A DNA stretch of 56,809 nucleotides from a virus (IMGVR_UViG_3300046170_000220:1-56809); one strand, 5' to 3'. Counted from the stretch's first letter, positions 1-33,890 are shown. Notes: a model not told the origin generated them from the sequence alone. Program-made: numbers and translations.

Positions 1-564
1 CGGTGTACCTCTAACTGAAATGATGCCAGCATGATTTTCTCAGCCGTTCCTTCAGAGGCTATAAACCTAGTGTGGGAAGATGTCTTCCCCCTTTTGGGTC
101 CAGCTTTACGGACTGCTGAGGGGAAGTTCCACATTGATGATGTGTATAGAATGATACAGTCAGGACAATACACACTATGGGTTGTTGTCGAAGATGATAA
201 ATATATAGCAGCCCTCACAACTAGGGTTTTGGAATATCCATCACGCAGGGCCGTAGCTATTGATTGGCTTGGCGGAAAAAGAATGAATGAGTGGCTGCCT
301 ATAGCTATGGAAACCGTAAAGAAGTACGCAAAAGATATTAATTGCAAACACCTTGAGGGATATGGCCGTAAGGCTTGGGGCAGGGTATTGGAAAAGCACA
401 ACTGGGAGCCAGAATATATTGCTTATAGAATGGAGTTGAGCGATGGGTAAAGGCGGCGGATCACCACCCCCTAGCAGTTCTACAGTTACGCAGACTAATC
501 TGCCTGAATATGTAGAGCCGTATTTTAAAAGGCTTCTTGAGCGTACAGAATCAGAAAGCAAGCG
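1..564. repeat. Direct terminal repeat, left copy (564 bp)
   Basis: 1-564 matches 56246-56809; ORF 31..450 recurs identically at 56276..56695 (offset 56245). Confidence 0.97.
31..450 (+). CDS. GNAT-fold/acetyltransferase-like virion-associated protein
   Basis: 139 aa; LWVV...IDWLGG...C..LEGYGRKAWGRVL pattern typical of the small gene preceding podophage ejection proteins. Confidence 0.55.
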   Translation: MIFSAVPSEAINLVWEDVFPLLGPALRTAEGKFHIDDVYRMIQSGQYTLWVVVEDDKYIAALTTRVLEYPSRRAVAIDWLGGKRMNEWLPIAMETVKKYAKDINCKHLEGYGRKAWGRVLEKHNWEPEYIAYRMELSDG

Positions 565-1876
565 CGAATATACGCCTTATTCGGGCGATAGACTTGCTGG
601 CACATCCGCTGATATCAAAGCTGTTGAAGGACGCAACGAGAAGAATGGCTCAACAAGGGTACGCCCTATATTGGCGAAGCCTATGGACACCACTAGGGCT
701 GGCATTCAGGCCTGCCTATGGTGCTGCCGGATACCGCCCCGGTCAGTTTCACTATGCCGGGTCAAGGCATTACTCAGTTTACTGGCCCAGCGGGCGTCAC
801 CAGATTTACTGGCCCAAGCGGACCAGCAGGGCTTTCCGGATATCCGTTCTCAGGTTCAGCAATTTAGAGGCCCGTCTGCTGTTAGTCAGTTTAGTCAAGT
901 TGGCCCAAGTGGTGAGTTTGATGCTGCTGCCGCACAACAATATATGGATCCGTACATGCAACAAGTTGTTAATGTACAGAAAAGGGAAGCCATTCAAGAG
1001 GCGCAAAAAGCTAAAGCTGGAAGGGCTGCTCAAGCGATTGGTGCTGGTGCATTTGGCGGCTCAAGGGAAGGCATTGTTCGATCTGAGGCAGCGGAGAGCC
1101 TGCAAAAGCAACTAGGTGACATCCAAGCCATTGGCTCACAACAAGCATTCAAGCAGGCACAAGAACAGTTCGAGCGTGATCGAGCTGCGCAAGAATGGGG
1201 CAAGAGCAGCAAAGAGTTCCAAGTTGAACAGGCTCAAGAACAAGCTGTCCGCAGGTTTGAGGACATGGGATTCTCAAGAGAGCAAGCCCAAGAGCAGGCC
1301 TTCCGTCAGATGGAGCAGCAGAGGATGGCTCAGGAGCAAGCGCAAGCAGATCTTGTGTCTCGCTTTGAGGAGGCTGGATTTAGCCGCGAGCAGGCCCAAG
1401 AATCTGCACAGCGTCAGATGGAGCAGCAAAGGTTCGAGACAGAGAAGGCCAGAGAGTCTGCGATTCAAGCGCGTTACAACCAACTTCTGCAAGCGCAGCA
1501 GGCTCAGGAGCAAGCTCGTCTTGCTGGCGCACAGTTTGGCCTTGAGGGTCTAAAGACTGGTATGGCTGGCGCAGAGCAGCTTGCAGAGCTTGGAGCCAAA
1601 GGTCAGGGCTTAACGATAGAACAGCTTAGAAGTCTTGAGCAGGTCGGCAAGGCAGAGCAAGCCCGCCGTCAGCAGGCTTTGGATATGGCGTATCAGGACT
1701 ATATGCGTCAAAGAGATTATCCAAGAGAACAGCTACAGTTCTATTCATCAATCCTTCGCGGTGTTCCTGTGTCTCCGTCTCAGGAGCAAGCAACGTATCA
1801 ACAAGTCAATCCGTTACAACAACTTCTTGGCACGGGACTGGCAGGTCTATCTTTATATAAAGGTCTTGGAGGCTAA
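443..1876 (+). CDS. Internal virion/DNA ejection (pilot-like) protein; compensating frameshifts likely around 620-850
   Basis: N-term TQTNLPEYVEPY, QQYMDPY, AGAFGGSREG, Q/A-rich coiled coil, C-term LLGTGLAGLSLY; the garbled middle reads as QF.GP repeats across frames. Confidence 0.7.
   Translation: MGKGGGSPPPSSSTVTQTNLPEYVEPYFKRLLERTESESKREYTPYSGDRLAGTSADIKAVEGRNEKNGSTRVRPILAKPMDTTRAGIQACLWCCRIPPRSVSLCRVKALLSLLAQRASPDLLAQADQQGFPDIRSQVQQFRGPSAVSQFSQVGPSGEFDAAAAQQYMDPYMQQVVNVQKREAIQEAQKAKAGRAAQAIGAGAFGGSREGIVRSEAAESLQKQLGDIQAIGSQQAFKQAQEQFERDRAAQEWGKSSKEFQVEQAQEQAVRRFEDMGFSREQAQEQAFRQMEQQRMAQEQAQADLVSRFEEAGFSREQAQESAQRQMEQQRFETEKARESAIQARYNQLLQAQQAQEQARLAGAQFGLEGLKTGMAGAEQLAELGAKGQGLTIEQLRSLEQVGKAEQARRQQALDMAYQDYMRQRDYPREQLQFYSSILRGVPVSPSQEQATYQQVNPLQQLLGTGLAGLSLYKGLGG
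1254..1470 (+). repeat. Imperfect 108-nt (36-aa) intragenic tandem repeat
   Basis: RFEDMGFSREQAQEQAFRQMEQQR and RFEEAGFSREQAQESAQRQMEQQR. Confidence 0.75.
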
Positions 1877-1879
1877 TCA

Positions 1880-3967
1880 ATGAACATTCTCGATATCCAA
1901 GACAACCTAAAGAACTTTTCTGAAGATCAGCTAATTAATGAGATGCAGATGCCGTCAGGCACAGCCCCTCAGTTCCTTGTTCTTGGAGAGATCAAGCGCC
2001 GCAAGAAGATGCGTGATGAGCTGTCGGCTCGTCAGGCTCAGAACATGCCCACTGTTGCAGAAGAAGCAATATATGCTGCGGGTATGCCACAAGAGGGTTT
2101 GGCTCAGATGGCTCAGGCCATGGCACCCCAAAGTTCAATTGCACAAAATACAGGTATAGGATCATTGCCACAGGCCGCACCGCAAGCTCCACCGGCAGGT
2201 GCAGAGATGGGTATGGCAGAGATCATGCCTGAGATGATGCCTCAAGGTATGCCACAGGGCATGCCGCCAGCTATGCCTATGGCTAGTGGTGGCCTTCTTG
2301 AGTCTCTGTTTGCCACAAAAAGCAGCGACTCAGAGAGTGGAAGGCCAGAAATACGCACCACCAAGAGTGGTCGCAAGGCCATGTACAAACCGGGAACAAA
2401 CATCTTCCTTGGATTTGTAGAAGAGGACAAGGGCATGGCGGCTGGTGGCGTTCTACGCGCACAGCAGGGCATGTATATGCCAGAAGACCCACGCCTTCGC
2501 GCCCTAATGATGCAGGAAAGCCGTGGAGATCCAATGGCTACTGGCTCAGTGGGTGAGATCGGTGCATTCCAAATCCGTCCTGAGACGGCGCTAATGCCGG
2601 GGTATGGTATCAAGAGTTTATTCCCAGAGATCTCTTCTGAGATTGGCGCTGGCAAGAAGTACAGAACACCAGCCGAAGCATATGAAGCCAACAAAGACCT
2701 CATTGACTCAACGCTAAGGAACACCCAGAAGGCAGAAGGTTTTGCCAGTGACTATCTAACAAGAGCAGAAGAGCGCCTTGGGTCACCTGAGGCTGCGTTA
2801 CTGTCATACAACCGTGGCATATCTGGCGCGGGTAAAGTAGATGACCCAACACAAGACCCATACTATCAGGGTGTCATGAGTTTCATGGGTGATGATGGCT
2901 TGCCTAGCGTTCTTGCTGATCGCGGTGTAACTGCTGCCGATCTGGCGCAACCTGATGCTGATGCTGGCTTGTTCTCTGCTATGGCGGCAACTCCTAGTGT
3001 AGCTACGCAAACGCCCGACATACCACCAAACATTATTAAAGATGAGTCTGGTCGTGCAATTGGGGATGCTTCTTACGGCCCAAGAATAAGAGCGGCTATG
3101 GAGGCTGGCGATGAGGAATTAGCTAATCAGCTAGTTGCTCAGGGACTGAACGAAGCAAACTTCTTTGAACAAATGTACAGAAACATTGACCCTGATGATT
3201 TAGGCAATGTTGGTCAGGATGCTGTCACCTCTGGAATTGGCTCAATAACAACGCCTGTTGGAACCGGAACCATAGATCCGGGACAAATGACGCAAGTCCT
3301 TCCGCTAGACCCAACACAAAAAACAATCAGCGGCGAGACCGTTGAAGAAGATGTTGCAGAATCTGAAACAGTTGAGCCGACAACAAGCGCAACACCTCCA
3401 GCAGCGGACGCTCCGGCGCAATCTTCTGGTGATGATATTGCAGCAGAGATAGCTAAACTGATGACGTTCAGCGGTAGTGGCTCAACATCTGGAGTCGAGC
3501 AAGAGATCATTGACCTGCAAAAAGATCTCGCTAAGTCACGCGAACAGGACAAGTGGCTAGCTCTTGGGCAGGCTGGGCTTGCGTTGATGTCGTCAACCAA
3601 CCCAACATTGCTTGGCGCTGTTGGTGAGGCTGGCCTTGCTGGTGTTAAATCACTCAAGGATGCTGACGAGAGTTACAGAGAGGGAGTCATTGACTTGATC
3701 AATGCTAGGTCTAAACTCAGTAAGGGCGCTTTAACTGCTGAGGAGGCGGCTCCTCTTCTGTCTGATGTACTTGAAACACTAGGGGAGACAGTGGAAGATA
3801 AGAACCCAGCCTCCCCAACATTTGGTGAGATGATTCCGAAGGTTACAGGAACATCACGGTTGGAGCTGGAAAACTTGAGAGATTACCTGATGCCTAAAGT
3901 TGGCTACCCATCTGCTACCCAAAGAGGTATACAAGCAGCTATATCCGCAACAAATAATGCGAGCTAA
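1880..3967 (+). CDS. Internal virion protein with soluble lytic transglycosylase (SLT) domain
   Basis: SLT motifs LMMQESRGDP (catalytic E-S), GAFQIRPETA, ALLSYNRG. Confidence 0.8.
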   Translation: MNILDIQDNLKNFSEDQLINEMQMPSGTAPQFLVLGEIKRRKKMRDELSARQAQNMPTVAEEAIYAAGMPQEGLAQMAQAMAPQSSIAQNTGIGSLPQAAPQAPPAGAEMGMAEIMPEMMPQGMPQGMPPAMPMASGGLLESLFATKSSDSESGRPEIRTTKSGRKAMYKPGTNIFLGFVEEDKGMAAGGVLRAQQGMYMPEDPRLRALMMQESRGDPMATGSVGEIGAFQIRPETALMPGYGIKSLFPEISSEIGAGKKYRTPAEAYEANKDLIDSTLRNTQKAEGFASDYLTRAEERLGSPEAALLSYNRGISGAGKVDDPTQDPYYQGVMSFMGDDGLPSVLADRGVTAADLAQPDADAGLFSAMAATPSVATQTPDIPPNIIKDESGRAIGDASYGPRIRAAMEAGDEELANQLVAQGLNEANFFEQMYRNIDPDDLGNVGQDAVTSGIGSITTPVGTGTIDPGQMTQVLPLDPTQKTISGETVEEDVAESETVEPTTSATPPAADAPAQSSGDDIAAEIAKLMTFSGSGSTSGVEQEIIDLQKDLAKSREQDKWLALGQAGLALMSSTNPTLLGAVGEAGLAGVKSLKDADESYREGVIDLINARSKLSKGALTAEEAAPLLSDVLETLGETVEDKNPASPTFGEMIPKVTGTSRLELENLRDYLMPKVGYPSATQRGIQAAISATNNAS

Positions 3968-3969
3968 TT

Positions 3970-6315
3970 ATGGGACAGGTAACAACCCGCAGTCCCCTCA
4001 CTGGTAGACTCTACACCTTCAATGTAGCTGGAGATCAGCCGACAGAGCAGGAGCGTTTAGCTGTTGCTCAATATCTCATTGCGACTGAAGGTCAGACACA
4101 ACAGCCCCAGACATCTGAGCTAATAGAGCAAGAAGAGAGAGAATCCAATGCTCTTATTGATGCGCCTAGGGAGTTCACTAGGGGATTAGCAAAAGGTTTT
4201 GCCGACATCCCCGGAGGCCTAGCATCATTAGCCACTGCTATATCCCCATTAGATAGGTTTGGCCTTGGCTACGTTGAGGATTATGTTGAATCTGCCGGTC
4301 AGGGTGTAACGAAAGCTGCAAGAGAAGGCATCGACAATTTATTAGGTGAGCCTGTTGACACGCCTGTTGGAAAGTTTGCTGGCGCTCTTGGATCTATATC
4401 ATCTTACTTTGTGCCAGTTGGCGCAGCCGCCAAGGTTGCGTCTGGTTTGGGCAAGGGCGCTAAGGCCGTAACAGCAGCGGGTACTGGAACGGCTGCCGCT
4501 ATGGGTGTTCGCTCAAGGCTCGCAACAGCAGGTTGACAGAATTGCCAGACAGATAGAGCTGGGGCAAGAGGTAGACAACAAAGACCTAGCAGTTGCACTG
4601 GGTGGCCTAATTGGTGCCGGTGAATTTTTCCCACTGCAAAAAGCATTCAAAACATTTACAAGAACATTAAAGGGCGTCCCAAAGGATGCTAAGAAAGATG
4701 CTATCGAGGCATGGCTAAGTAAGGTAAACCTTAAAGCCAGAGCAAAGAGTGCTGGAAAGACAGGCTTGTTTGAGGCCGCTCAGGAAGCCACTGCTGGGAT
4801 GGGCGCAAGATCTCGTAGAAAAGAACCTGTACAACCCAGAGCCTTGATATAAGTTTAAGTTCATATCAGGATGACGCTATCTATGGTGGTGGCTGCTGGT
4901 GCTGCATTCAACTTCTTTGTTGATACCATAGCTGGCAGAAAGCTAAAGAAGTCTCTCTAACTCAAGGAATCAGCTTCAGCAGGATATGGATGAAGAGGGG
5001 CAGGCTAACAGGTCTCTGTTAGATAACGCAGAGACATCCCTTGGTACAGCCATGACCTTTGATGCAGAGGGAAATGAAGTCCCAAAGGGCGGCAGGCCAT
5101 TAATAGCTGCCCCCAAAGCAGAGCCTGTTGATGCTTTAGAAGGACAGGTGCCAAGCCCCACTCAAGACGCCGAGCCTACAGCAGAGCAGATCGCAGCGTC
5201 TGCGAATGTAAAGCAACTTGCGCTAGAGCCTAACAAAGAGGCGGAGCTTCAGAGCCGTAAAGCAAAAGAAATTCTGCTGGCAAACCCAACAGAGATAGAA
5301 GTAAAAGACCTGCCCGAAGATGAACAGGCCGCCGTGCGCCAGTACCGAATGAGAGCAGGGCTTCAAGATATTGAGGCACCACTCACAAGAGACGAACTTG
5401 AGGAAGCTGTGTCATCTACCCTTGGTGAGGACAGGGGCATTGAGGCTGCGAATCGTGAGGGATCGAAGAGGTTTCCCAGAAACCTTTGAGCCTAAGCTAA
5501 CAGAGAAAAAAGCAGCAGAAAGAAAAGCTGAAGCTGTTGTGCAGGCAAGGGTAGCTGAGGTTATTGAGGATGCCAAAGCTGGTCTTAAAAACGGAGAACT
5601 TCTCAAGAAGAACGGAACCATATCTCTTGGCAAGGTTAAGTCTAGGCTAAAGCTAAACCAGAATGAGGCCGTTGCCGTTGTCGATAAGCTCAAAGCTATT
5701 GGCTATGCCACACCTATTTCCCCGACAGAACTAAAGCCAATTCTACCAGAAGCCCGCCTCGAACCTGCAAACTTTACTAAAGTTCGCATGCTGCAAGACG
5801 GTGTGGCTAACAATAAAGATTATCTGGCTGGCGCAGAAGTCAGTGTAACTGACACGGAAGCATTAGTGTTGCAGCAAACAGGCGTTGCTGAACCCATCTC
5901 TGAAGGCCCGTCACCAGAGCAGGAAGCCCTAAGAGAGTTTCAGGTGGCTATGCAGGAGCTACAGTTCGACAGAGCAGAGCAGCAAAGACGCCTAGACAAA
6001 ATGAAAGAGGCTGGCGCTCAGGATCAGACTCAACAAATCATGCTGGAAAACCAGCAGCGCGTAGTCGATGAGGCAAACGCAAGGCTTCAGGCAGCCCTCA
6101 ACAAAGAGCAAGAGCTGCTAGCTAAGGCCAACCTCTCCAACCCTCAGAACTCTGATGGACTGCCAGCAGATCAGGTGCTAGCAAACGAAGCTCGACAGGC
6201 AGCGGAAGAGTCAACCGCATCTCAGCCAACTGAAGAGTACAAGCGGAAGATAAACACCGTAGCCAACCTGCTGCGTAAGTACATGTTTAAAGAGCTTGGC
6301 ATCAAGGGACGTTGA
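3970..6315 (+). CDS. N-terminal part of the giant ejection/polyvalent protein, broken by frameshifts (ORFs 3970-4536, 4505-4852, 4986-5489, 5371-6315)
   Basis: Overlapping same-strand ORFs with abrupt junctions; G/A-rich membrane-like segments followed by charged coiled coil; the last fragment overlaps ORF 6296. Confidence 0.6.
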
Positions 6316-9300
6316 CATTGTAACTGAGAATGTTCTTGAGCCTGACAAGATCAAAGACGGCTTTATTGTCGAGGGTTACTATGACGGTAGCGGCGAAGGC
6401 AGGAAGATCATCGCCCTTGCCATGGAGATATACGACCCGAACCTGACTGAAGCACAATTGTTCCAGCGTCTGCGTGGCGTCCTTAACCATGAGGTCATCC
6501 ACGCCCTGCGTGGCCTTGGCGTACTGACTGAGCAGGAGTTCGCCACTCTTGTTAAGGCAGCGTCTAAGCGTAAGTTTGTCAAGAAGGTTGGTGGTAGATT
6601 AGTCGAAAGAGACTACACATTCCTTGACCGCGCTGTAGCCATGAACGAAGGCCAGAGCATTGAGTATCAGCAAGAGGAAGCTGTTGCTGAAATGTTTAGG
6701 TCTTATGCTGATGGCAAGATCAAGGTTGCTGGCAAGCCTAGAACAATCTTCCAGAAGATAGGCAGGTTCTTCAAGTCTATATTCAACGCCCATAGGGATG
6801 CTGGCTTCACTGATGCGGCCTCTATCTTTGACAACATCCAATCAGGCAAGATTGGCAGAAGAGAGAGAAGCCTACAAAAAGCAGCGGCAGTACCAGCAGG
6901 AACAAAGTATTCCACCGCCGGTATCAGGGCCGGATTCCACGCGCCTGACATCGACAAGAAAGCTGCTGAACGCATAGGCATGTCCTTTAAGGATGTGACC
7001 AAGCGTGTAGAGGAGTTAACAAAAAGTGCAAATGAACTTTCTGATGGCGAAATAACCTACGATGAGTACGACAAAAGAGTTAATAAGTTCAAGCCGATCA
7101 TTCCGTACCAGACCGTACCAGCGCCAGCTACGACAAAAGAAATGGTCTCCGCTTTATCCGAAGGGAAAAAGGCTAAAGTGGGAAAAGCGTCAGAGATACA
7201 AGACAACACCCCTGTCAAACTAAGACTGGACATACCATCATACACACAGAAGGGTGTGTGGGTTCCCACCATCCACGGTCAAGACAACAGAACAATTGCC
7301 CACGAAAGCACAGCCATTGTTACCAATGCTAAGTTTTCTGCAAGCGACAGGACAGCTTTAAGAATAGCTAAGGGCGCTGCCAAAGGACCGTTTGCTACAA
7401 TTGATGGCATGTTTAAATATGCAACGCCAGACAATGCCTTTGCCGTAGCGCAAGAAATGTTGGCTGACCCAACAGTTGTTCAGGTTGGCTTTGATCCTGA
7501 GCGTCATTCATACTTCTATGACCGCACCACGACAGAGCCTGTTGTTTCAGCCGACTTAGTTGTACAGGTTGGCCCTCTTGTGCTGGCAAAGAACCCACAG
7601 TTTGCGCCTAAGTCTGACTTCAAGTATTCGGTGGCAAGGACTCAGGGATTAAACACAATAAGAGAGTTTATTAAAAACAACCCAGACGGATTTACCATAA
7701 CATCTCAGGGCGTTTCTGTCCCGATAGGAACCCCCGATAGTGGTATCGTAGTCGCTCCAATTAAGGACGCGGAACTTATTGTAGGTGGTGATATACCAAT
7801 CAATGTTCTTAGGGAGTATATCGAAAACGCTAAGGCTATGTCAGGAATATTTAACAGAGAGGTTTTCCTTGGAGGCTGGCTCAACAATGACAATGGCAAG
7901 TATTACCTTGACAACACACTCATAGTAAACGATAAGGCAGAGGCACTCTATTTTGCTCAGGCGGCGAAGCAAATAGCTGTTTATGATTTGAGAGTGCCGC
8001 CGTATGGACAGGAGATAGTTACAGATGAAGGAATCAAACAACTCCAAGAAGCCGGTATTTATAGGAGTGACACCGCAGAGCAATACAGAAGAAGTATTGA
8101 GCGAGCTAGTGGCCTCTTTAGAGCGGCAAGGATTGAAAATCAAAGACAAAGAGAAGCCGAGGCAAGCCTAGCTGCCAGAGCTTACTCGGTAGCCATTACC
8201 CCAAAGGCAGACCCTAACGGCAACGTGCGCCTTACTCACTACTCTCCTATGACAGACCTTGAGGTTGTTAACCCTGAAGAGCAAGGCTCTAACTACAGGA
8301 TGCGTGGAGAAGAGAGGAAGAGGCAGGCATCAGCTTGGCGGCAGGACTACCCAGCAAGAAGTTACTATGGCCTTAATGTTGGCGAAGAGGGTGGTTACTC
8401 TAAAGAGTATTCTGTCGGAGAAAATGTATATGTTGCCGATGTTCCTCTTGCAGACCTATATAACTTTGAAGAAGACCCAGAGGGATTCAAATCTAAAGCT
8501 GATGGCATGATAACCGATAGGGTTATGGAGCTTTCTTGGGGTGACCCTCAAGGATTCATCCTGACTCAGGCCGAGAAGATGGTTGCTGATGCTGGTTACT
8601 CTGGGTACTACACCAACACCCCAATGGGCTTGGTTGCTGCGATGTTTAACCCAATTAAAGTTAGGCCTAATATTGCTGACGCAAAGAAGTTTTCTATTGC
8701 GAGGCTGTCTCCAGCAGAGATAGGCCTGACATCAATCAACAATGTTAACACCGAGCTTGGCGACCCAGTAAACAATTACTATGTACAGCAAGCCCCATAT
8801 GGCAGCGTTGCTATGCAGACTGCTGTGCTAAAGATGCAACAAGATCGCGGTAACGTGGTTCTGAACTGGGACAACCCAGATAACTGGGAAACATTAGCAC
8901 GGCTTATGGCGGCAGAGGCTGAGGTTGCCCTGTCGCGAGATAAGAATGCTCTTGGTTGGTACGACAGAACACTCGATACCGCCAAGCGTGTCACATCTAT
9001 ATTGTTCCCAGACATCAAGCCAAATACAGATGCTGAAAGCGCATTCATATTTGCTACTGCCGTTACATCAAACGGTGTTCCTGTTATTGGTAACTGGCAA
9101 GCAGCAGCAGAGCAGTACAAAAACTGGAAAGAAACAGGACGGTTTATTGAGAAGGGTTATGGAGACCAAGGCTCCAGCATGATCCCAGCATTCCAGCTCT
9201 ACAATGCAATGAAGGATCTAAACTACACAGACCTTGAGATTAAAGACTTCCTGAATCAGAAGATGACTGTAAGTGAGTTACGGCAAAATAATCTCTTGAA

Positions 9301-12300
9301 AGAGCTGGGCTACAAAGACAGTGGAGCTGAATCGGCAGACACTGAAGTTTTTGTATCATACATTCTGGGACCAAAAATCGGTCAAGGTTTTTACCAGAAC
9401 CTAGTTGGCAACTTTAACACACTCACCATGGATCGATGGTGGATGCGGATGTTTAACCGTATAAGTGGTCAGCCTTTCGTTAACCCAGAGCGTCCTGAGA
9501 CATTCGATAAGCGTGTATCTGAGATCATTGAGTTTTCAAACAACCCTGTATCTGATGCAGAGTCCACGATTATTAACGTGGCAAAGGCTGAAATTAATGC
9601 TGACATCATCACGCCTGAAAATGTTGATGAGTTTTCGTATGCGGTTAATAGATATTTTCAGAGGGTCTATAAGCGCCTGACACAAAGTATTAATACAGCA
9701 AAGGAATCTCTGGCTATTGCAGAGCAGTCTGGAGATTCTGCCGCAATACAGAAGGCAACGGATGATCTTCTCAACGCCGAGAAGAACAGGAATAGAGACC
9801 CCAACAAAATATTCCTGCCATTCAAGTCACGTTTGTTCCAGCGTGTAAGTGGACACGTTAAGAAGCTGGAAGATGCCCGCAAAGGCGGAGCCATGCAGGA
9901 AGACCCGCGCTCTCCAAAGCAGCGTCAAGCCATGAGGGCAATAGCTAATCGAGCAAGAGAGATAGTCCAAGAGGATCTTGGCACCTCAATGTCTAACGCA
10001 GATTTTCAAGCGCTGATGTGGTATCCTGAGAAAAATCTCTTTTACTCTTATGGGGTAAAGAAGGGTCAGGGTGACGACAATGATTACATAGATGGGGCAA
10101 TAGCACTATTAGAAAAGGAAGGTTACAATGTTGACACCATCGCGCAAGCACTCCCCGAATCAGACGCAAGGATCGTCAATGATAGAAAGGGTGCCGCAGA
10201 ATCGTATGAGAGAACTGGTATTGAGCTTACAGAACCAGATAGACCAGAAGAAGGCGCAGTCGGTGATGCTGGAGGAAGAAAGCGAAGCGTAGCTCGCGTA
10301 GCTCCTGAACGTGATTATTCTATGCCAACTCAGGTTCTGTCTGACAGGATAGACCAACAGGCAAAGAACCACACATATGATAACGCATCTCGCATTCTTG
10401 CCAAGGTTATCCGTGGCGCTACATTCGGTAATGTCAGTAAGCAGAAAGCCCAAGGATTATCTGAAAGGTTCCTGACCAAGTATCAGGACTCTATGCTGCC
10501 GCTTGGCAAAATGCTAGACGAGATACGCGCCAACCCAGACAACGATATGGTCGATGCCTTTGATGCGTATATGCAGGAAGAGCTTTCTCAGGGCGTAGCC
10601 GGTGCCAGAATAGCGAACAACACTCAAGATTTCTTTGAGCCTATTGCGGAGGCTATGAAGAACATTGATGTGTCAGAAGTTCAATTGAACTCTATTGGCT
10701 CCAAGTATATTAGAGACTACCTAGCAACAGAGGCAGACCCACGGCAGGTGATTGCTGACGCTTACCTATATGCCAGACACGCCAAGGAAAGAAATAAGTA
10801 CATCCTAGATAGGTACAAGCGCGGTAATGGATCGGGTATGTCTGATGCTGAGGCAGATACCATACTGTCTTGGGTGAACGGTCAGCCAGTTGACATAAAG
10901 GCAAGCCTTGATGAGGTTGCATCCATAGCTGACCAGATTATTGAAAGCACAAACGCCTTCCGTAAAGAGGGTGATCTTATACCTGACTTTGCACAAGTAG
11001 CCGCCGACCCTGAGTCTAAATGGCAGCCAACAAACTTCAGCTTCTATGTCCCGTTACGAGGAACCTTAACCCCTGAAGAGGAATCAGTAGACGACTTTGG
11101 TAATGTGCCAAGGAGAACGCCCAATCTATATGGCGCTAGAGGGCGCAACGATGCTCGCATGCAGGGTCGCGGCAACGAGTACGCCACTGACATCGTGTCT
11201 CACTTGATGGCGCAGAACATGCTGACTATCCAGAGGGCTGAGAAGAACAAGGTTGGCAAAGCTTTCTATGACATGGTTGCCAGTGATCAGGTTGACACTG
11301 CCGACTATGCAGAGATTGTTAATAAGGTTGCTGACCCTGACAACACATTGACTGTGAAGATCAATGGTGAGGACAAGTATGTTGAGATCTTTGACGACCG
11401 TATAGCAAGAGCAATGAAGGGGGCGATGACACCACAAAGTCAGAGCGGCCTTGTCAAGTTCATGGCTGGTCTGAATCGGCTACTGTCAAACATGAATACA
11501 TCATGGAACCCTGAATTTGTTCTATCGAACTTTCCAAGAGACTTGGAGGCAGCGGGTGTAAACCTAGGCCAGTATGATGAGAAGGGTCTAACAAAGGATG
11601 TGATAGCCGGAGCCTTTCCAGCAGTTAAAGGTATAGGTGACTTCCTTAGAACAGGGAACATATCAAGCGAGTGGTCTGGATGGTACAAAGAGTTTGTTGA
11701 CAACGGGGGCAAGAACGCAACAAACCAGATGTCTGACTTACAGGACAGCATGAACAGCATCAAGTCAGTTCTTAACGACATATCAAACGATGGTCTGTCT
11801 AAGAAGTTTGGTGCCATGAAAAACAAGTTCACTCAGAGCGGCATCATTAAATTCCTAGATGACTGGAACACAGCAGTTGAGAATGGTGTCCGTGTTTCCC
11901 TTTATAAACAACTAGTTGAGAGGGGTTACTCGCCAAAGAGAGCGGCGCAAGCAGCGAGAAACATCACCGTTAACTTTGCTAAGGGTGGTGAGGAAAGAGC
12001 CTTCATGAATGCTTGGTTCCTTTTCTACAACGCATCACTGCAAGGCACGATGGCATTAACTAACGCAGCAGTTCGCTCGCCTAAAGTCAGGAAGCTTTGG
12101 ATTGGCCTGTTGATGTATGGATTCATGCAAGACATGATCCTTGGATCAATGTCAGGTGATGAGGACGAGGATGGCAAGAGTGACTATGACGAGATTGGTG
12201 ATTACGAGTTAGAGCATAACTTTATATTGCCAACATTCGGACTAGCTGACGAAAAGTATATTGCGATTCCGCTTTCATATGGACTCAACATGGCGGTAAA

Positions 12301-13138
12301 CACTGGAAGGTCTGTAAGCAGATTAGCCAGAGGTGAGTACACTCCAAGCCAAGCCGCCGGTTCCATCACCGGCACAGTCCTTGAGACACTTAACCCGCTC
12401 GGCTCTGGAATAGATGATTACGAAAACATCCTTGCCCCAACTGTGGTTGATCCGTTCCTTTCAGTGGCAATCAACAAGGACTACAAGGGCGCACCGATTT
12501 ACAAGGAAGGCTCACCATTTGGTTTGGCAAAGCCAGACAGTCAAATGTACTGGAACAACACTGGGCCTATACCAAAGTTTATTGCTGATCAGGTTAACAA
12601 ACTAACAGGAGGCAGCCGCGTGACTCCGGGGTATGTTGATATGTCTCCAGATGTTTTGGAGTTCTGGTTCAACTACCTAACAGGAGCAACTGGTGCGTTT
12701 GTTAAGCGTTCCATTGAAGCGCCTGTAAATATATATGATGCAATACAGGGCGACTTTGAAGGCACTCTTGTTGAGACCATTCCATTTGTTAGAAAAGTTG
12801 TAGCCACTCCCACCGAAATACAGGACATGGGTACTTACATTGAGAATAAGGACAAGGTTCTTAGAGCGCGTAAGGAACTTGAGACAGCAATCGCATATGG
12901 GGAAGTCGAACAAGCAAACGAAATCAGAAAAGAATATGCAAAGCTTCTGAAAATTTATGGGCTGATCAAAGGATTTGAGAACGCTAGGAACAGACTGATC
13001 AGGAAGAAGAACGAGATCAAGAACAGTCCACGCATACCAGAAGAGCGCAAATCTAACTTGATCCAGAAGATCAACGAGAGGATCAAGGAGATAGTCACAA
13101 GATCAAACAAGGTCATGTATGATGTTGGGATACGGTAA
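6296..13138 (+). CDS. Giant polyvalent virion protein: zincin metallopeptidase, several effector-like domains, LPD38-like C-terminus
   Basis: HEVIH...EEAVAE zincin motif; LTHYS...RSYYG...AGYSGY ART-like segment; GPKIG...TMDRWW...QALMW HhH-GPD-like segment; ARNITVNFAKGG...FLFYNASLQG typical of LPD38-type C-termini. Confidence 0.75.
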   Translation: MASRDVDIVTENVLEPDKIKDGFIVEGYYDGSGEGRKIIALAMEIYDPNLTEAQLFQRLRGVLNHEVIHALRGLGVLTEQEFATLVKAASKRKFVKKVGGRLVERDYTFLDRAVAMNEGQSIEYQQEEAVAEMFRSYADGKIKVAGKPRTIFQKIGRFFKSIFNAHRDAGFTDAASIFDNIQSGKIGRRERSLQKAAAVPAGTKYSTAGIRAGFHAPDIDKKAAERIGMSFKDVTKRVEELTKSANELSDGEITYDEYDKRVNKFKPIIPYQTVPAPATTKEMVSALSEGKKAKVGKASEIQDNTPVKLRLDIPSYTQKGVWVPTIHGQDNRTIAHESTAIVTNAKFSASDRTALRIAKGAAKGPFATIDGMFKYATPDNAFAVAQEMLADPTVVQVGFDPERHSYFYDRTTTEPVVSADLVVQVGPLVLAKNPQFAPKSDFKYSVARTQGLNTIREFIKNNPDGFTITSQGVSVPIGTPDSGIVVAPIKDAELIVGGDIPINVLREYIENAKAMSGIFNREVFLGGWLNNDNGKYYLDNTLIVNDKAEALYFAQAAKQIAVYDLRVPPYGQEIVTDEGIKQLQEAGIYRSDTAEQYRRSIERASGLFRAARIENQRQREAEASLAARAYSVAITPKADPNGNVRLTHYSPMTDLEVVNPEEQGSNYRMRGEERKRQASAWRQDYPARSYYGLNVGEEGGYSKEYSVGENVYVADVPLADLYNFEEDPEGFKSKADGMITDRVMELSWGDPQGFILTQAEKMVADAGYSGYYTNTPMGLVAAMFNPIKVRPNIADAKKFSIARLSPAEIGLTSINNVNTELGDPVNNYYVQQAPYGSVAMQTAVLKMQQDRGNVVLNWDNPDNWETLARLMAAEAEVALSRDKNALGWYDRTLDTAKRVTSILFPDIKPNTDAESAFIFATAVTSNGVPVIGNWQAAAEQYKNWKETGRFIEKGYGDQGSSMIPAFQLYNAMKDLNYTDLEIKDFLNQKMTVSELRQNNLLKELGYKDSGAESADTEVFVSYILGPKIGQGFYQNLVGNFNTLTMDRWWMRMFNRISGQPFVNPERPETFDKRVSEIIEFSNNPVSDAESTIINVAKAEINADIITPENVDEFSYAVNRYFQRVYKRLTQSINTAKESLAIAEQSGDSAAIQKATDDLLNAEKNRNRDPNKIFLPFKSRLFQRVSGHVKKLEDARKGGAMQEDPRSPKQRQAMRAIANRAREIVQEDLGTSMSNADFQALMWYPEKNLFYSYGVKKGQGDDNDYIDGAIALLEKEGYNVDTIAQALPESDARIVNDRKGAAESYERTGIELTEPDRPEEGAVGDAGGRKRSVARVAPERDYSMPTQVLSDRIDQQAKNHTYDNASRILAKVIRGATFGNVSKQKAQGLSERFLTKYQDSMLPLGKMLDEIRANPDNDMVDAFDAYMQEELSQGVAGARIANNTQDFFEPIAEAMKNIDVSEVQLNSIGSKYIRDYLATEADPRQVIADAYLYARHAKERNKYILDRYKRGNGSGMSDAEADTILSWVNGQPVDIKASLDEVASIADQIIESTNAFRKEGDLIPDFAQVAADPESKWQPTNFSFYVPLRGTLTPEEESVDDFGNVPRRTPNLYGARGRNDARMQGRGNEYATDIVSHLMAQNMLTIQRAEKNKVGKAFYDMVASDQVDTADYAEIVNKVADPDNTLTVKINGEDKYVEIFDDRIARAMKGAMTPQSQSGLVKFMAGLNRLLSNMNTSWNPEFVLSNFPRDLEAAGVNLGQYDEKGLTKDVIAGAFPAVKGIGDFLRTGNISSEWSGWYKEFVDNGGKNATNQMSDLQDSMNSIKSVLNDISNDGLSKKFGAMKNKFTQSGIIKFLDDWNTAVENGVRVSLYKQLVERGYSPKRAAQAARNITVNFAKGGEERAFMNAWFLFYNASLQGTMALTNAAVRSPKVRKLWIGLLMYGFMQDMILGSMSGDEDEDGKSDYDEIGDYELEHNFILPTFGLADEKYIAIPLSYGLNMAVNTGRSVSRLARGEYTPSQAAGSITGTVLETLNPLGSGIDDYENILAPTVVDPFLSVAINKDYKGAPIYKEGSPFGLAKPDSQMYWNNTGPIPKFIADQVNKLTGGSRVTPGYVDMSPDVLEFWFNYLTGATGAFVKRSIEAPVNIYDAIQGDFEGTLVETIPFVRKVVATPTEIQDMGTYIENKDKVLRARKELETAIAYGEVEQANEIRKEYAKLLKIYGLIKGFENARNRLIRKKNEIKNSPRIPEERKSNLIQKINERIKEIVTRSNKVMYDVGIR

Positions 13139-23763: not shown

Positions 23764-24885
23764 TTACGCCTCAACCTCAATGCGGGTGGTCTGACCGAAT
23801 GGCGCATCATCGCAGTCAGGATAGGTTGAAACCCAAAGCACTGGGTAATCAGGGGCATTATCAGGGTAATCCCAAATGCCCATGTCAGTCAGGTAAACCA
23901 TGTTATCAACAGGCAAACCCTGATCTTCGATGTAGTCAAAGACAGGCTGCACTCGCGTACCGCCGCGCCCCTTCGCACTGATCTTGTCAATGACCTCACC
24001 CTCACAGTAGTGCCTCACATTCTGTACACGGCTGTCGCATGTGATCACTGTGACAGAGCGGGGCTTGTGTTCTTCGGTGATGGCGTTAAGCTCACCAACG
24101 AATTGCTCAAGTTCAAACTGATTGACTGAGCCGCTGGTATCGACAGCAACAACCACATCACCGACACCGATCTTGTCTATGGCTGGCATATAAATACCCT
24201 GCGTATAGTAGACCTTGCGATTGCAACGCCGGAACGTGTAGTCATCAGGCTGGTCACCGCCTACGAAACGGTGGAACACATCGCGCCAGTCAACCTTAGA
24301 CCTACGCATCTTGTTGACCATGCCCTCAATCGCCGCAGGAAGCTTGCCAGCGGCCTTTGCAGCATTAGCAGCCATGAAGACACGCTGATCAATCTCAGCT
24401 TCCATCTGCTTGGCCTCAGCGGGTGATGGGTCTTTACCATCCTTGCCCTTGGCATCCATAACCGCGCCCCATTCGGGTTGTTTGTTCTGATCTTCGGGCA
24501 GTTGCTCGTAAACCTTTTCTGCTGTCATCCCCTTATACTGATCATCAAACAGACCGTTTTCTGGCAGGGTAAAACCAGCATCGATCAGTATGTCATTGAT
24601 CACATAGTCTGCGGCAATGTTCCACCGCTCAGGGTTACGCTCACCGCGCCGCAACATGTGCTTCATGGCAACATGCATGACCTCATGGGCAATGACACCT
24701 GTCACCTCATCCTCACTACAGCGATCTACAAAATCCTCAGACCAGAGAATTTTTGTGCCATCAGTTGCCATGGTCTGACCATCAGGCTGCTGCACAAAGT
24801 GCAATGACAGTGCGAGTGATCCAAAGAATGGATGCTTGATTAAGAGTTTTGTTTTAGATCGTGCGATCTTCTGGGTTGCTTCCAT
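23764..24885 (-). CDS. DUF2201-type metallopeptidase plus VWA domain protein
   Basis: TMATDG, AHEVMH, WNIAADYVIN; MIDAS DTSGS, GRGGT, YLTD; ATG 24885 after GGAG. Confidence 0.88.
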   Translation of the reverse strand: MEATQKIARSKTKLLIKHPFFGSLALSLHFVQQPDGQTMATDGTKILWSEDFVDRCSEDEVTGVIAHEVMHVAMKHMLRRGERNPERWNIAADYVINDILIDAGFTLPENGLFDDQYKGMTAEKVYEQLPEDQNKQPEWGAVMDAKGKDGKDPSPAEAKQMEAEIDQRVFMAANAAKAAGKLPAAIEGMVNKMRRSKVDWRDVFHRFVGGDQPDDYTFRRCNRKVYYTQGIYMPAIDKIGVGDVVVAVDTSGSVNQFELEQFVGELNAITEEHKPRSVTVITCDSRVQNVRHYCEGEVIDKISAKGRGGTRVQPVFDYIEDQGLPVDNMVYLTDMGIWDYPDNAPDYPVLWVSTYPDCDDAPFGQTTRIEVEA

Positions 24886-24945
24886 GATTGTCTCCGAAAA
24901 GTGCAGTTGAACTTTTGGAAGGGGGCGCAACCGCCCCCCTCAAAT

Positions 24946-29589: not shown

Positions 29590-29825
29590 TGTTTTTAGCC
29601 TCGCTATATGTTTGCGTAGCAATGAATATGCAGGAATGCCTTGTTCTTGAGGATATGCGCGGTCCATATGAAACAATCGAGCTTTGTCAGGACAGGGTGC
29701 ATGAGATGGCGGCAGTCGCTCTCTCTGTCGGGCATATCCCAATAAGATTTAGATGTTCTGTCGCAGAGGAAAAAGATGATCCATCTAAAGGACGTAAAAA
29801 ACAAGCTGTCAACTTTATCTCCTGA
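29586..29825 (+). CDS. Small Cys-containing hypothetical protein
   Basis: Hydrophobic N-terminus, GPYET...C; coupled. Confidence 0.5.
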   Translation: MMFLASLYVCVAMNMQECLVLEDMRGPYETIELCQDRVHEMAAVALSVGHIPIRFRCSVAEEKDDPSKGRKKQAVNFIS

Positions 29826-31284
29826 GAAGCAGGCGGAGATACTTGAGCTTCTTGAGCTGTATGAAAACGCAAAGGACAAGGAGGATTGTAGAGAATCATT
29901 CCTGTCTTTCGTGAAAAGGGTATGGCCTGCTTTCATTGCCGGGAGGCACCATGAAATCATGGCCAATGCCTTTGAGCGCGTAGCACGGGGAGAGCTAAAG
30001 CGATTAATTGTTAACATGCCGCCCCGTCACACCAAGTCAGAGTTTGCTTCTTATCTTTTCCCGGCATGGTTTCTTGGGCAATACCCAGAAAAAAAGATCA
30101 TCCAGACAGCCCACACAGCAGAACTTGCTGTAGGATTTGGACGTAAGGTTAGAAACCTGATCAATCAGGAAGACTTCCAAGAGATCTTTCCCGGCATATC
30201 CCTGTCTTCTGACTCGAAAGCAGCGGGAAGATGGAACACAAACAAGCGAGGTGACTATTTTGCTATTGGTGTTGGTGGTGCAGTTACTGGTAAGGGCGCT
30301 GATGTCCTCATTATCGATGACCCGCACTCGGAGCAGGAGGCGGCACTGGGGGCTTACAACCCAGAAGTCTACGACAAAGTATACGAATGGTACACATCAG
30401 GCCCAAGACAGCGTTTGCAACCGGGTGGAGCGATCATAATTGTCATGACTCGATGGTCCGTCAGAGATTTGACGGGGCAAATCGTGAAGTCATACACCCA
30501 AAGAGAGGGTGCGGATGAGTGGGAAGTCATAGAACTCCCTGCAATCATGCCATCCGGTGATCCATTGTGGCCTGAGTTCTGGCCAATAGACCAATTAGAG
30601 GCGCTAAAAGCAGAACTTCCCATTTCAAAATGGTCTGCTCAGTACCAACAGGACCCAACATCAGAGGAAGGCGCACTAATCAAGCGCGAATGGTGGCAGG
30701 AATGGGACAAAAGTTCCTTCCCGCCTTGTGAAGCTATCATTCAAAGCTGGGATACGGCGTTTTTGAAGACGCAACGTGCTGATTACAGTGCATGCACAAC
30801 ATGGGGTGTGTTTAACTGGCCAGATGAAAGCGGTGTATCCCACCCAAACCTGATATTGCTGGACGCATACAAAGAAAAGCTGGAGTTTCCAGAGCTAAAA
30901 CGTGCAGCCTATGACAAATACTGGGAATGGGAGCCGGATCAGATGATTGTCGAGGCAAAAGCTGCCGGGTCTCCGCTGATATTTGAGCTTAGAGCTATGG
31001 GAATCCCGGTAACAGAGTTCACCCCATCGCGTGGGCAAGATAAAATAGCTCGCGTTAATGCAGTGACAGACCTGTTTGCTAGTGGTAGAATATGGTGTCC
31101 GCCTACAAGGTGGGCAGAAGAGGTAGTTGAGGAGTGCGCTGCTTTCCCTGCTGGAGAGCATGACGATTTGGTTGACTCTACAACTCAAGCCCTTTTAAGA
31201 TTCAGGCAGGGTGGCTGGATCAGATCTTCAATGGACGACTGGGATGACGAACCTAAATACAGAAGACCAACAGAATACTATTAA
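29776..31284 (+). CDS. terL: Terminase large subunit
   Basis: NMPPRHTKS, IIDDPH, IVMTRW, QSWDTA, HDDLVDS. Confidence 0.95.
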   Translation: MIHLKDVKNKLSTLSPEKQAEILELLELYENAKDKEDCRESFLSFVKRVWPAFIAGRHHEIMANAFERVARGELKRLIVNMPPRHTKSEFASYLFPAWFLGQYPEKKIIQTAHTAELAVGFGRKVRNLINQEDFQEIFPGISLSSDSKAAGRWNTNKRGDYFAIGVGGAVTGKGADVLIIDDPHSEQEAALGAYNPEVYDKVYEWYTSGPRQRLQPGGAIIIVMTRWSVRDLTGQIVKSYTQREGADEWEVIELPAIMPSGDPLWPEFWPIDQLEALKAELPISKWSAQYQQDPTSEEGALIKREWWQEWDKSSFPPCEAIIQSWDTAFLKTQRADYSACTTWGVFNWPDESGVSHPNLILLDAYKEKLEFPELKRAAYDKYWEWEPDQMIVEAKAAGSPLIFELRAMGIPVTEFTPSRGQDKIARVNAVTDLFASGRIWCPPTRWAEEVVEECAAFPAGEHDDLVDSTTQALLRFRQGGWIRSSMDDWDDEPKYRRPTEYY

Positions 31285-31439: not shown

Positions 31440-33890
31440 ATGGCTGTAGAAAAGCAAATGACCCCAATGGAAATTGAGGGTATTGAAGAAGAGCAATCCG
31501 ATATCGATATTGAGATTGTAAACCCAGATGCTGTTTCAATTGAAACAGAAGAAGGGGGGATGGTTATTGATTTCACCGGGGAGGCAGCAGAAGATATATT
31601 GGGGCCGGAACATGATGGGAATATTGCTGAGTTTTTGGAAGACGCCGAACTACAATCCTTGGCGTCCGAGTTGGTTTCAGATTTTAATTCGGACCGTCAG
31701 AGCCGGAAAGACTGGGCGAGATCATATGTCAAAGGACTAGACCTTCTTGGTATGAAGATCGAAGAACGTCAGCAGCCTTGGGCTGGCGCATGCGGTGTGT
31801 TCCACCCAGTTCTCACAGAATCAGTTGTCCGCTTTCAGGCACAGGCTATGGGAGAGATATTCCCAGCCTCTGGACCAGCTCGCACTAAAATCATGGGCAA
31901 GATGACCCCTGAAAAGTTTGAGCAGTCACAGCGCGTTGAGAATGAGATGAATTATCTCCTGACTGAGGAGATGACGGAATACCGTGATGAGACAGAGCAG
32001 ATGCTGTTTAAGCTGCCGCTTGCAGGTTCAGCCTTTAAAAAGGTTTACTATGATCCATTGATGGAGCGCCCATGTGCAATGTTCGTTCCAGCAGAAGACT
32101 TTGTTGTTTCATATGGTGCTTCCGATCTTATGACATGCCCTCGCTACACGCATGTCATGAAGAAAACGCCTAATGAAATCGTTGAGCTAATGGTTAATGG
32201 TTTCTATCGTGACATTGACCTTCCAGATCCTGAGCCTGACTACTCTGATATTCAGGAAAAATATGACGAGCTTGATGGTGACGAGGCGATCATTGAGGAC
32301 GATGATCGTTACACCCTTCTGGAGATGCATGTAGATGTTGACCTTCCAGAGCCGTTTGATGACCCAGACGGAATCGCTCGCCCATATGTTATCACCATCG
32401 ATAAGTCATCAAGAGAAATTCTCGCCATCAGGAGGAACTGGTATGAGGACGATCAAAAGAAAAAGAAACGCCAGCACTTTGTTCACTACCGCTATCTACC
32501 GGGTCTTGGCTTTTATGGGACGGGCCTTATCCACCTTATCGGTGGGTTGGCTAAATCCGCAACATCAATCCTGCGCCAGTTGGTGGATGCGGGTACGCTG
32601 TCTAACCTACCCGCTGGTCTTAAAGCTCGGGGTCTTCGCATCAAGGGTGATGATTCGCCTCTCATGCCGGGTGAGTTCCGTGACGTTGACGTACCGGGTG
32701 GTGCAATACGCGACAGCATTACTTTCATTCCTTACAAAGAACCGTCCTCAGTCTTGTACCAACTGCTCGGCAACATTGTCGAAGAGGGCCGGAGAATAGG
32801 TTCTGTTGCTGATATCCAAATCGGGGACATGAATAACCAAGCGCCAGTAGGTACAACACTTGCCTTACTTGAGCGTAGCATGAAAGTAATGTCTGGTGTT
32901 CAGGCTAGACTGCATGCGGCTATGAAGAATGAGCTGCGTATTCTAGCGAAGATCATTCATGACTACATGCCTGAAGAATATGCTTATGAGATGGATGGAG
33001 ACTTTGACCGTAAAGAAGATTTTGATGGTCGTATTGATGTCATCCCCGTTTCAGATCCTAATGCTTCAACCATGTCTCAGCGCGTTATGCAGTATCAGGC
33101 GGCGCTTCAGTTAGCGCAGCAGGCACCGCAGCTTTATGACATGGGCAAGCTCCATCGCCAAATGCTAGAGGTTCTTGGCATTCAGGATGCGGCGGATATT
33201 GTTAAGCTTCCAGATGAAATCAAGCCAGCAGATCCTGTAACAGAAAACATGTCGATCCTAAAACAAGAGCCAATCAAAGCGTTCATGTATCAGGATCATG
33301 CGGCCCACATTGGCGTTCATATGTCAGCAATGCAAGATCCAAAGATGCAGGAACTTGTTGGTCAGTCACCTTTCGCCAGTGCAATTCAGAGCGCCTTCGC
33401 CTCTCATATTACTGAGCATGTGGCCATGCAGTACCGTGTTGAAATCCAGAAGATGCTTGGTGTGGAGCTTCCAGATCCAGAAGCGCCATTGCCAGAAGAC
33501 ATTGAGCTTCAGGTAAGCCGTATGGCAGCAGAAGCAGCGGCCAAGCTTCTCCAGAAGGATCAGGCAGAAGTGCAGCAAAAGAAGGCTCAAGAGCAGCAGC
33601 AAGATCCTCTAACTCAAATCCAGCAACGTGAACTTGCTATCAAAGAACAAGAGCTACAGCACAAGATCCAAATGGATATGGCCAAGCTTCAGATTGATGG
33701 TCAGGTTAAAATGGAAAACATTGAGATTCAAAAAGATCGTCTTGAGTCTGAAGAGAAGCGAGATGGTGCAAGACTTGGCGTTAAGATCGCTCAAGAGCTT
33801 GACAAAAACAAAGAGAAGGCAATATCAGAAGGAACTAAAATTGGACTTCAAATGGCAAGGGAGCTGACAAATGGCGGAGACAATTTATAA
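31440..33890 (+). CDS. Portal protein
   Basis: 816 aa directly after terL; GSAFKKVYYD, GFYGTGLIHLIGG, coiled-coil C-terminus. Confidence 0.88.
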   Translation: MAVEKQMTPMEIEGIEEEQSDIDIEIVNPDAVSIETEEGGMVIDFTGEAAEDILGPEHDGNIAEFLEDAELQSLASELVSDFNSDRQSRKDWARSYVKGLDLLGMKIEERQQPWAGACGVFHPVLTESVVRFQAQAMGEIFPASGPARTKIMGKMTPEKFEQSQRVENEMNYLLTEEMTEYRDETEQMLFKLPLAGSAFKKVYYDPLMERPCAMFVPAEDFVVSYGASDLMTCPRYTHVMKKTPNEIVELMVNGFYRDIDLPDPEPDYSDIQEKYDELDGDEAIIEDDDRYTLLEMHVDVDLPEPFDDPDGIARPYVITIDKSSREILAIRRNWYEDDQKKKKRQHFVHYRYLPGLGFYGTGLIHLIGGLAKSATSILRQLVDAGTLSNLPAGLKARGLRIKGDDSPLMPGEFRDVDVPGGAIRDSITFIPYKEPSSVLYQLLGNIVEEGRRIGSVADIQIGDMNNQAPVGTTLALLERSMKVMSGVQARLHAAMKNELRILAKIIHDYMPEEYAYEMDGDFDRKEDFDGRIDVIPVSDPNASTMSQRVMQYQAALQLAQQAPQLYDMGKLHRQMLEVLGIQDAADIVKLPDEIKPADPVTENMSILKQEPIKAFMYQDHAAHIGVHMSAMQDPKMQELVGQSPFASAIQSAFASHITEHVAMQYRVEIQKMLGVELPDPEAPLPEDIELQVSRMAAEAAAKLLQKDQAEVQQKKAQEQQQDPLTQIQQRELAIKEQELQHKIQMDMAKLQIDGQVKMENIEIQKDRLESEEKRDGARLGVKIAQELDKNKEKAISEGTKIGLQMARELTNGGDNL

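Follow-up and report, generated by a model that had tools for sequence, protein, structure and literature searches.

A recurrent linker motif in a giant polyvalent phage protein may be the cleavage site of the protein's own predicted peptidase

The polyvalent proteins of phages, as described by Iyer, Burroughs, Anand, de Souza and Aravind in 2017 (PMC5512222), combine a metallopeptidase-like domain with LPD domains and exchangeable modules, and self-processing by the metallopeptidase domains was already proposed there; neither a cleavage site nor a junction motif is named in the text of that paper that was searched. The protein presented here likewise has a metallopeptidase-like domain, an LPD domain and a modular build. 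It is encoded in IMGVR_UViG_3300046170_000220:1-56809, the record of a complete virus with direct terminal repeats, analysed over its full 56,809 bases and referred to below as the window. A first-pass annotation of this DNA had seen the protein in the open reading frame (ORF) 6296-13138 and placed it among the phage polyvalent proteins. That placement is well founded, as LPD38 is present, relatives have PBECR5 and ART-PolyVal, and the protein is multidomain and encoded among virion genes. With high confidence, the ORF is the 3' three quarters of one gene encoding a giant polyvalent phage protein, which, judging by homology, probably travels in the virion and enters the host by ejection.

3970..13138, plus strand: complete extent of the giant gene (about 3,050 codons), which closes the late (virion) operon and is broken in this record into frames 1/2/3/1/2/3/1/2

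Amino acid (aa) numbers below follow ORF 6296-13138, a mechanical TTG-to-stop frame of 2,280 aa. The gene is laid out as an N-terminal region of about 770 aa, the peptidase-like domain, four middle modules that fold independently and a C-terminal module of about 950 aa, with probably disordered linkers between them. Two AlphaFold2 models cover aa 1-830 (47 aligned sequences, mean predicted local distance difference test (pLDDT) score 75.5) and aa 790-1989 (33 rows, mean pLDDT 71.3, the C-terminal module being truncated), and together they contain at least six folded units. The five linkers predicted in this way have one copy each of a short linear motif whose core reads [KR]-[YF/R]-S-[VIT]-A-[R]:

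6905..6922, plus strand: motif 1, KYSTAG, aa 204, about 15 aa past the end of the peptidase domain (IGRRER), in the low-confidence segment aa 179-237
7622..7639, plus strand: motif 2, KYSVAR, aa 443, pLDDT below 50 at aa 443-450
8180..8197, plus strand: motif 3, AYSVAI, aa 629, the weakest copy, pLDDT below 50 at aa 626-632
8687..8704, plus strand: motif 4, KFSIAR, aa 798, pLDDT below 50 at aa 797-801
10280..10297, plus strand: motif 5, KRSVAR, aa 1329, in the middle of a 62-aa low-confidence stretch, aa 1298-1359

The first-pass annotation had read these hexapeptides as near-identical sequences lying in linkers, and had set the AlphaFold domain boundaries as a test of the latter. In the aa 1-830 model, pLDDT falls below 50 at aa 1-31, 179-237, 443-450, 626-632 and 797-801; four of these segments hold motifs 1-4, and three of the four barely exceed the motif in length. 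In the aa 790-1989 model the low segment 509-570, which corresponds to aa 1298-1359, holds KRSVAR, so that five out of five motifs are predicted to fall in low-confidence segments between confident modules. Nine further low segments of the second model, mostly in the truncated C-terminal module, are free of the motif; low confidence alone is therefore no predictor of it. All five hexapeptides are in frame in the ORF at the nucleotides first assigned to them, and the module sizes of 239, 186, 169, 531 and 952 aa that had been derived from them follow from the motif positions. The presence of five copies stands; their near identity does not, KYSTAG, AYSVAI and KRSVAR being looser variants. The N-terminal and C-terminal blocks of the window's protein have no copy within them, and an extra K-F-S at aa 346 is inside a confidently folded module.

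To gauge chance recurrence, the motif was counted in the 2,280-aa protein and in 20,000 shuffled versions of its residues. Both K.S[VI]AR (3 observed vs 0.005 expected) and [KRA][YFR]S[VIT]A[RGI] (5 observed vs 0.014 expected) were reached in 0/20,000 shuffles, and [YF]S[VI]A (3 observed vs 0.14 expected) reached 3 in a fraction of 0.00045, values which are all optimistic because the patterns were defined after the hits were known. More weight belongs to the independent tests, in the models, the codons, the homologs and the family. P0004, 57% identical overall, keeps the five sites as RYSTAG, KYSVAR, ARSVAP, KYSIAR and KRSIAL in diverged linkers, and P0007 and P0008, at 40% identity, keep sites 1, 2 and 4, with site 5 degenerate and site 3 lost. 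Most conserved is the copy right behind the peptidase, found in the form [KR][YFH]S[TM]AG in 39/59 homologs, at about aa 750-980, among the first 60 proteins listed. Concerning the underlying DNA, Ser is encoded across the five copies by TCC, TCG, TCG, TCT and AGC, and Arg by AGG, AGG and CGC; with codon choice varying from copy to copy, it is the peptide and not the DNA that is under selection. A recombination signal at the DNA level was considered and rejected, as the codons differ at most positions and there is no conserved DNA word. Sites 1 and 2 have 8 identical bases in common, AAGTATTC.

Upstream of the first motif lies the domain that the first-pass annotation had called a zincin peptidase on account of its HExxH and downstream Glu residues:

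6383..6865, plus strand: predicted zincin-like metallopeptidase domain, aa 30-190
6488-6502, plus strand: HEVIH, aa 65-69
6674-6691, plus strand: EEAVAE, aa 127-132

The residues on which that call was based hold up, H65, E66, H69, E127 and E132 being invariant in 47/47 aligned rows as well as in a separate 20-sequence alignment, and HExxH being kept in 214/214 long family members with the full domain. The model shows pLDDT 84-96 over aa 51-160 and predicts helices at 65-73 and 122-138 (pLDDT 86-96), which would give a gluzincin-type layout with HExxH on one helix and the downstream Glu on a second. Members with a dead peptidase, which would have allowed a test of motif loss, were sought among the 214 long family members and none was found. 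The domain has no Pfam match and no PDB sequence match by profile, profiles of the domain and of the C-terminal part finding only coiled-coil and low-complexity noise among PDB sequences, and its only neighbours in the protein atlas are LPD23, LPD1 and MuF_C, all from polyvalent contexts. PDB fold searches with both models gave nothing at E <= 0.001, an 830-aa multidomain query being one that blunts such a search. The sole high-probability PDB match of the aa 1-830 model was 6kyf, an anti-CRISPR protein (probability 0.95, template modelling (TM) score 0.44 on target, E 0.044). A complex prediction of the peptidase (aa 30-195) with a 38-aa linker (aa 428-465) scored 0.00, which counts neither for nor against binding.

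The motif had also been proposed as a boundary for module exchange, to be checked by whether homologs swap modules there, and the homologs bear this out. Breakpoints, taken as the internal ends of BLASTP alignments between the 2,280-aa protein and 120 homologs, cluster at the motifs: 255/429 fall within 20 aa of one, where uniform placement expects 9%. P0003, 96% identical, has module 1 deleted exactly, its ...AGT-KYS-VAR... running straight from the first half of site 1 into the second half of site 2. P0099 has its counterparts of modules 4 and 2 in reverse order, beginning at KFSIRQ and KYSGRI. The same tendency is seen across the family. In a set of 46 representatives that share less than 70% overall identity and contain 143 [KR][YF]S motifs between them, 1,687/7,993 internal ends are within 20 aa of a motif, vs 4% at random, and they peak at 0-5 aa.

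This family is large. Searched against 1.84 billion representatives, a peptidase-domain profile matches 1,861 clusters at E <= 0.001; the best 150 of these 1,861 consist mainly of proteins 2,000-4,400 aa long whose peptidase domain is near aa 650-900. The 143 [KR][YF]S motifs of the 46 representatives compare with 67.8 +/- 8.5 expected, and in 106 wider representatives 239 are observed vs 142.9 +/- 11.3, the highest count in any of 200 shuffles being 180. Pro, Gly, Ser and Asp abound in the flanks of 274 distinct sites, as they do in linkers. Within a span of 70 aa behind the peptidase the strict motif is present in 49/152 representatives vs 8 expected. Some relatives have known effector modules between similar linkers, PBECR5 in P0045, where the match begins at residue 1099 and KFSVKK is at 1100, and ART-PolyVal in P0081. 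The distant members P0145, P0158, P0159 and P0162 show tandem motifs four residues apart, e.g. RFSRRY/RYSATA, RFSRRF/RFSATA and KFSRKF/KFSATA. When 50,697 records were searched with the N-terminal two thirds, no cultured phage with a motif-bearing giant protein was found.

Taken with the sequence and the models, these observations make one reading the best of those considered, at about even odds: the predicted peptidase would recognise the motif and cut its own chain there. Processing of this kind would leave the N-terminal part still joined to the peptidase, each of the four cargo modules, and the C-terminal module as separate products. Cutting may occur in the filled head or after ejection, the moment that the first-pass annotation had proposed, and either timing fits. 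Typical gluzincins prefer a hydrophobic residue just behind the cut; if the phage enzyme is gluzincin-like, the cut would fall before the aromatic residue (K/Y-S, the slash marking the cut), a guess from general knowledge. Because the linker tolerates new junctions, relatives can swap, delete and reorder modules at the same sites.

A wider proposal, which we put forward as possible but doubtful, is that peptidase and motif form a general plug-in delivery system, in which domains placed between [KR]-[YF]-S linkers are packaged, ejected and cut free in the host. If true, the motif would be both a release signal and a safe seam for cargo trading in more than 1,800 clusters, and would show exactly where each of hundreds of uncharacterised injected effectors begins and ends. 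A defined junction motif for polyvalent proteins appears to be new, no paper on one having been found in the literature outside subscription journals and supplementary files; the idea of metallopeptidase processing is that of 2017. To this idea the motif adds exact residues to mutate and exact fragment ends to seek. It also allows thousands of giant phage proteins that lack annotation to be divided by rule into cargo modules, which would help to find injected counter-defence proteins and to understand how a 3,000-residue protein is packed and ejected. Even if uncut, the motif would remain a linker signal across the family, and one that calls for an explanation.

Several points weigh against cleavage by the protein's own peptidase. 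The peptidase assignment itself is drawn from motifs and a predicted helix pair, without a Pfam, PDB sequence or fold match. Breakpoints in linkers are expected for any multidomain protein, whatever the motif does, and 79% of the family breakpoints are not near a strict motif; breakpoint and motif counts are, moreover, not independent events, because the sequences are related. When alignments start at the window's motifs, the relative has a strict motif at the matching place in only 15/92 cases, and mostly shows degenerate forms there (x-S-[VIRK], such as SRSVVR, KRSQIS, VNSVAT and MFSRKQ) in which Ser is the constant residue. The strict motif is lacking in 15/106 of the wider representatives, and any [KR][YFW]S in the 2,794 aa of the homolog from Stx-converting phages (see below). 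As to products, no cleavage product has been seen for the family in the available reports: the mass spectrometry of JC1 used a whole gel lane (PMC9144972), and no size for gp47 was found in the text of the phi24B preprint (bioRxiv 10.64898/2026.04.10.717836). Finally, N4 gp50 has an HExxH domain and, as reported in PMC5512222, is packaged unprocessed, so that an HExxH domain does not imply processing.

The N4 protein is likewise the precedent for the main rival (PMC5512222, PMC13434306), in which a non-cutting short linear motif sits in a giant protein that stays whole. The motif could then serve for docking or threading during packaging or ejection, as a site of Ser modification or as a pseudo-substrate keeping the peptidase inhibited, with the peptidase acting on host targets or on cell-wall peptides; in this last respect it agrees with the peptidoglycan target that the phi24B authors propose (bioRxiv 10.64898/2026.04.10.717836). 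The conservation pattern is compatible with it as well, Ser being the only residue kept in degenerate forms and the most conserved copy, right behind the peptidase, fitting a tethered pseudo-substrate. Docking or modification, however, leaves unexplained why there is one copy per junction and none in the N-terminal or C-terminal blocks, and the 25 other ORFs scanned show no evident candidate for a partner or a modifying enzyme. We consider this rival somewhat unlikely, though it deserves to be taken seriously.

That the motif is a cleavage site for another protease, either of the host or a phage head-maturation protease, we find improbable. The exposed position of the motif in linkers would suit such an enzyme, basic and aromatic residues are common protease determinants in general, and the internal proteins of T4 are trimmed by a separate head protease. 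Yet the scan of the 25 other ORFs revealed no head-maturation protease, the 'protease' PHROG matches falling on the capsid-protein part of fusion profiles. Furthermore, the motif travels with the peptidase family: it is missing from the module limits of the single-module relatives outside that family, CRP-207 gp58 and the Limnohabitans DC33 protein, and a search of the other 41 ORFs of the window (11,617 aa) for substrates in trans gave only 4 [KR][YF]S of the plain kind and no extended one.

The last and least probable alternative, that the copies are functionless traces of recombination or inherited linker copies, or that they undergo self-cleavage at x/Ser by an N-to-O acyl shift as in Nup98 and ZU5 (F/S), could draw on the coincidence of breakpoints with motifs, on the invariant Ser and on AAGTATTC, through which the P0003 deletion could have been mediated, but it has to face codons that differ at most positions without a conserved DNA word, motifs kept while the linker around them diverges, and the general requirement of F/S self-cleavage for a common folded upstream domain, whereas here the upstream domains differ and the motif is probably disordered.

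Concerning the gene limits, ORF 6296-13138 turned out to be incomplete, TTG 6296 not being the gene start. The closest relative in the protein collection, the 3,090-aa P0002 (91% identical), has the whole query covered, nearly all other relatives being of 2,300-3,300 aa, and in a tblastn search its sequence covers 3970-13135 of the window, in frames 1, 2, 3, 1, 2, 3, 1 and then 2. The frame changes correspond to the following feature:

4508..6304, plus strand: seven single-base insertions (+1), near 4508, 4795, 4842, 4894, 4958, 5472 and 6304

Contigs from four seawater runs of four different studies (X1-X4) were compared with the window over 3970-6400. Among the matches listed, one base is absent at or next to each of the seven places: at 4508 in X2, X3 and X4, at 4795/4796 in X3 and X2, at 4842 in X3, at 4894 in X1, X3 and X4, at 4958/4959 and at 5472/5475 in all four runs, and at 6304 in X2; the comparison has two further indel rows besides these. 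Matching pieces are in a single frame in 40/40 related loci. The false start at 6296 is thus due to the seven insertions, and the coverage by P0002, the contigs free of the extra bases and the single frame of the relatives place the real start at ATG 3970, directly after the stop of the preceding gene. None of the insertions is in a long homopolymer. All seven are inside 1.8 kb of the giant gene, with none in its other 6.8 kb. This record has either seven errors or a defective variant of the giant gene. A megablast search of the giant gene against cultured phages gave no match.

The modules that the motifs separate are the following:

6923..7621, plus strand: module 1, with a core (aa 332-423) like mycobacteriophage L5 gp82
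7640..8179, plus strand: module 2, alpha/beta domain, then a long helix (aa 591-629)
8198..8686, plus strand: module 3, weakly like 'lysin'-annotated proteins of Microcystis and Nostoc phages
8705..10279, plus strand: module 4, all-alpha, like part of the giant proteins of 39-kb phage records
10298..13135, plus strand: conserved C-terminal module of about 950 aa, including LPD38 (12179-12778)

The four middle modules show no Pfam match above threshold and no known enzyme family, and hence no recognisable effector enzyme. The core of module 1 has a weak resemblance to PF25735 (E 4.8e-5, below the curated cut-off), and its matches in BFVD, a viral structure library, are actinophage proteins of 120-140 aa; the spacing of motifs 1 and 2 is 276 aa in P0002 vs 239 aa in the window, a difference of 37 aa. 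Module 2 is found at other positions in P0051, P0099 and P0107-P0113. Modules 3 and 4 match parts of phage proteins labelled 'lysin' or 'crystallin-motif protein', by tblastn over aa 641-795 (30% identity, E 2e-5) and aa 860-1322 (27-28% identity, E 5e-32), respectively; the match of module 4 in Limnohabitans phage DC33 is a 3,126-aa protein. The DC33 record (PQ492659.1), of 39 kb, is filed under Inoviridae, a misfit for such a genome. In the C-terminal module, LPD38 (PF18857, E 4.3e-33, 115 bits vs a cut-off of 27) is the sole Pfam match above threshold, and PHROGs 14770, 616 and 10691 are matched. No clear transmembrane helix is present, the best 19-aa Kyte-Doolittle mean in P0002 being 1.37.

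The surroundings of the gene are those of a virion operon:

443-1876, plus strand: large gene upstream of the giant gene, weak match to PHROG 'DNA ejection protein' (E 4e-12)
1880-3967, plus strand: large gene that directly precedes the giant gene, with an SLT (transglycosylase) domain (E 6.5e-8)
23764-24930, minus strand: HNH endonuclease gene, 388 aa, phrog_1314 (E 1e-106), in the replication region
29776-31284: large terminase gene
31440-33890: portal gene, its protein 43% identical to the portal of Pelagibacter phage HTVC023P
34170-34538, plus strand: Cpn10 (GroES-like) co-chaperonin gene, PF00166 (E 5e-14), between the portal and capsid genes
36568-37473: capsid protein gene

The late operon begins with the large terminase gene; tail and virion genes extend to the end of the record, and the operon goes on across the terminal repeat into 31-3967, with the giant gene last. 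By their sequence matches, the products of 443-1876 and 1880-3967 are probably further internal or ejection proteins. A reading of these two as the terminase and portal genes is wrong, given where terminase and portal are found. The runs in which the giant gene occurs are from seawater and estuary samples.

Among described proteins, the closest is that of the Stx-converting podophages (phi24B gp47, 2,811 aa; 933W type), to which the C-terminal approximately 890 aa are homologous (29% identity, aa 1388-2272, E 2e-88). This homolog, annotated as 'LPD5 domain-containing protein' in Shigella phage 75/02 Stx, resembles the window's protein in having LPD38 and in being encoded by the last large gene of the late region; it differs in having its own LPD5 and LPD1, and the N-terminal two thirds of the window's protein show no tblastn similarity to it. 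Mass spectrometry has shown phi24B gp47 in virions; the authors of that study propose that it is an ejection protein and that the peptidase attacks peptidoglycan (bioRxiv 10.64898/2026.04.10.717836). In a tblastn search of 347 phage records, the C-terminal module was found to be common to the giant proteins of Stx and Vibrio phages, about half of its length being common to Bcep22-like ones as well. The latter, known as 'DarB-like antirestriction' proteins (JC1 gp69, 4,515 aa), share aa 354-814 of the C-terminal module at 27-29% identity, and JC1 gp69 is virion-associated by mass spectrometry (PMC9144972).

Pfam finds neither a methyltransferase nor a helicase domain in the window's protein or in P0002. 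P1 DarB has both, and the DarB label is therefore not applicable to the window's protein. The virion RNA polymerase of N4, gp50 (about 3,500 aa), is also a giant ejected protein, in which an HExxH subdomain precedes a large C-terminal block, all-alpha and of unknown fold (PMC13434306). It differs in carrying an RNA polymerase and in being reported as unprocessed, and it has no sequence relation to the window's protein by profile against the PDB, its fold match not being significant (E 0.039, probability 0.12).

The arrangement of one chain with a protease, cargo domains and linkers holding the protease's short recognition site is known from MARTX toxins and viral polyproteins. The MARTX protease is a cysteine protease domain, in class and delivery route unrelated to the phage protein, for which cleavage is a prediction.

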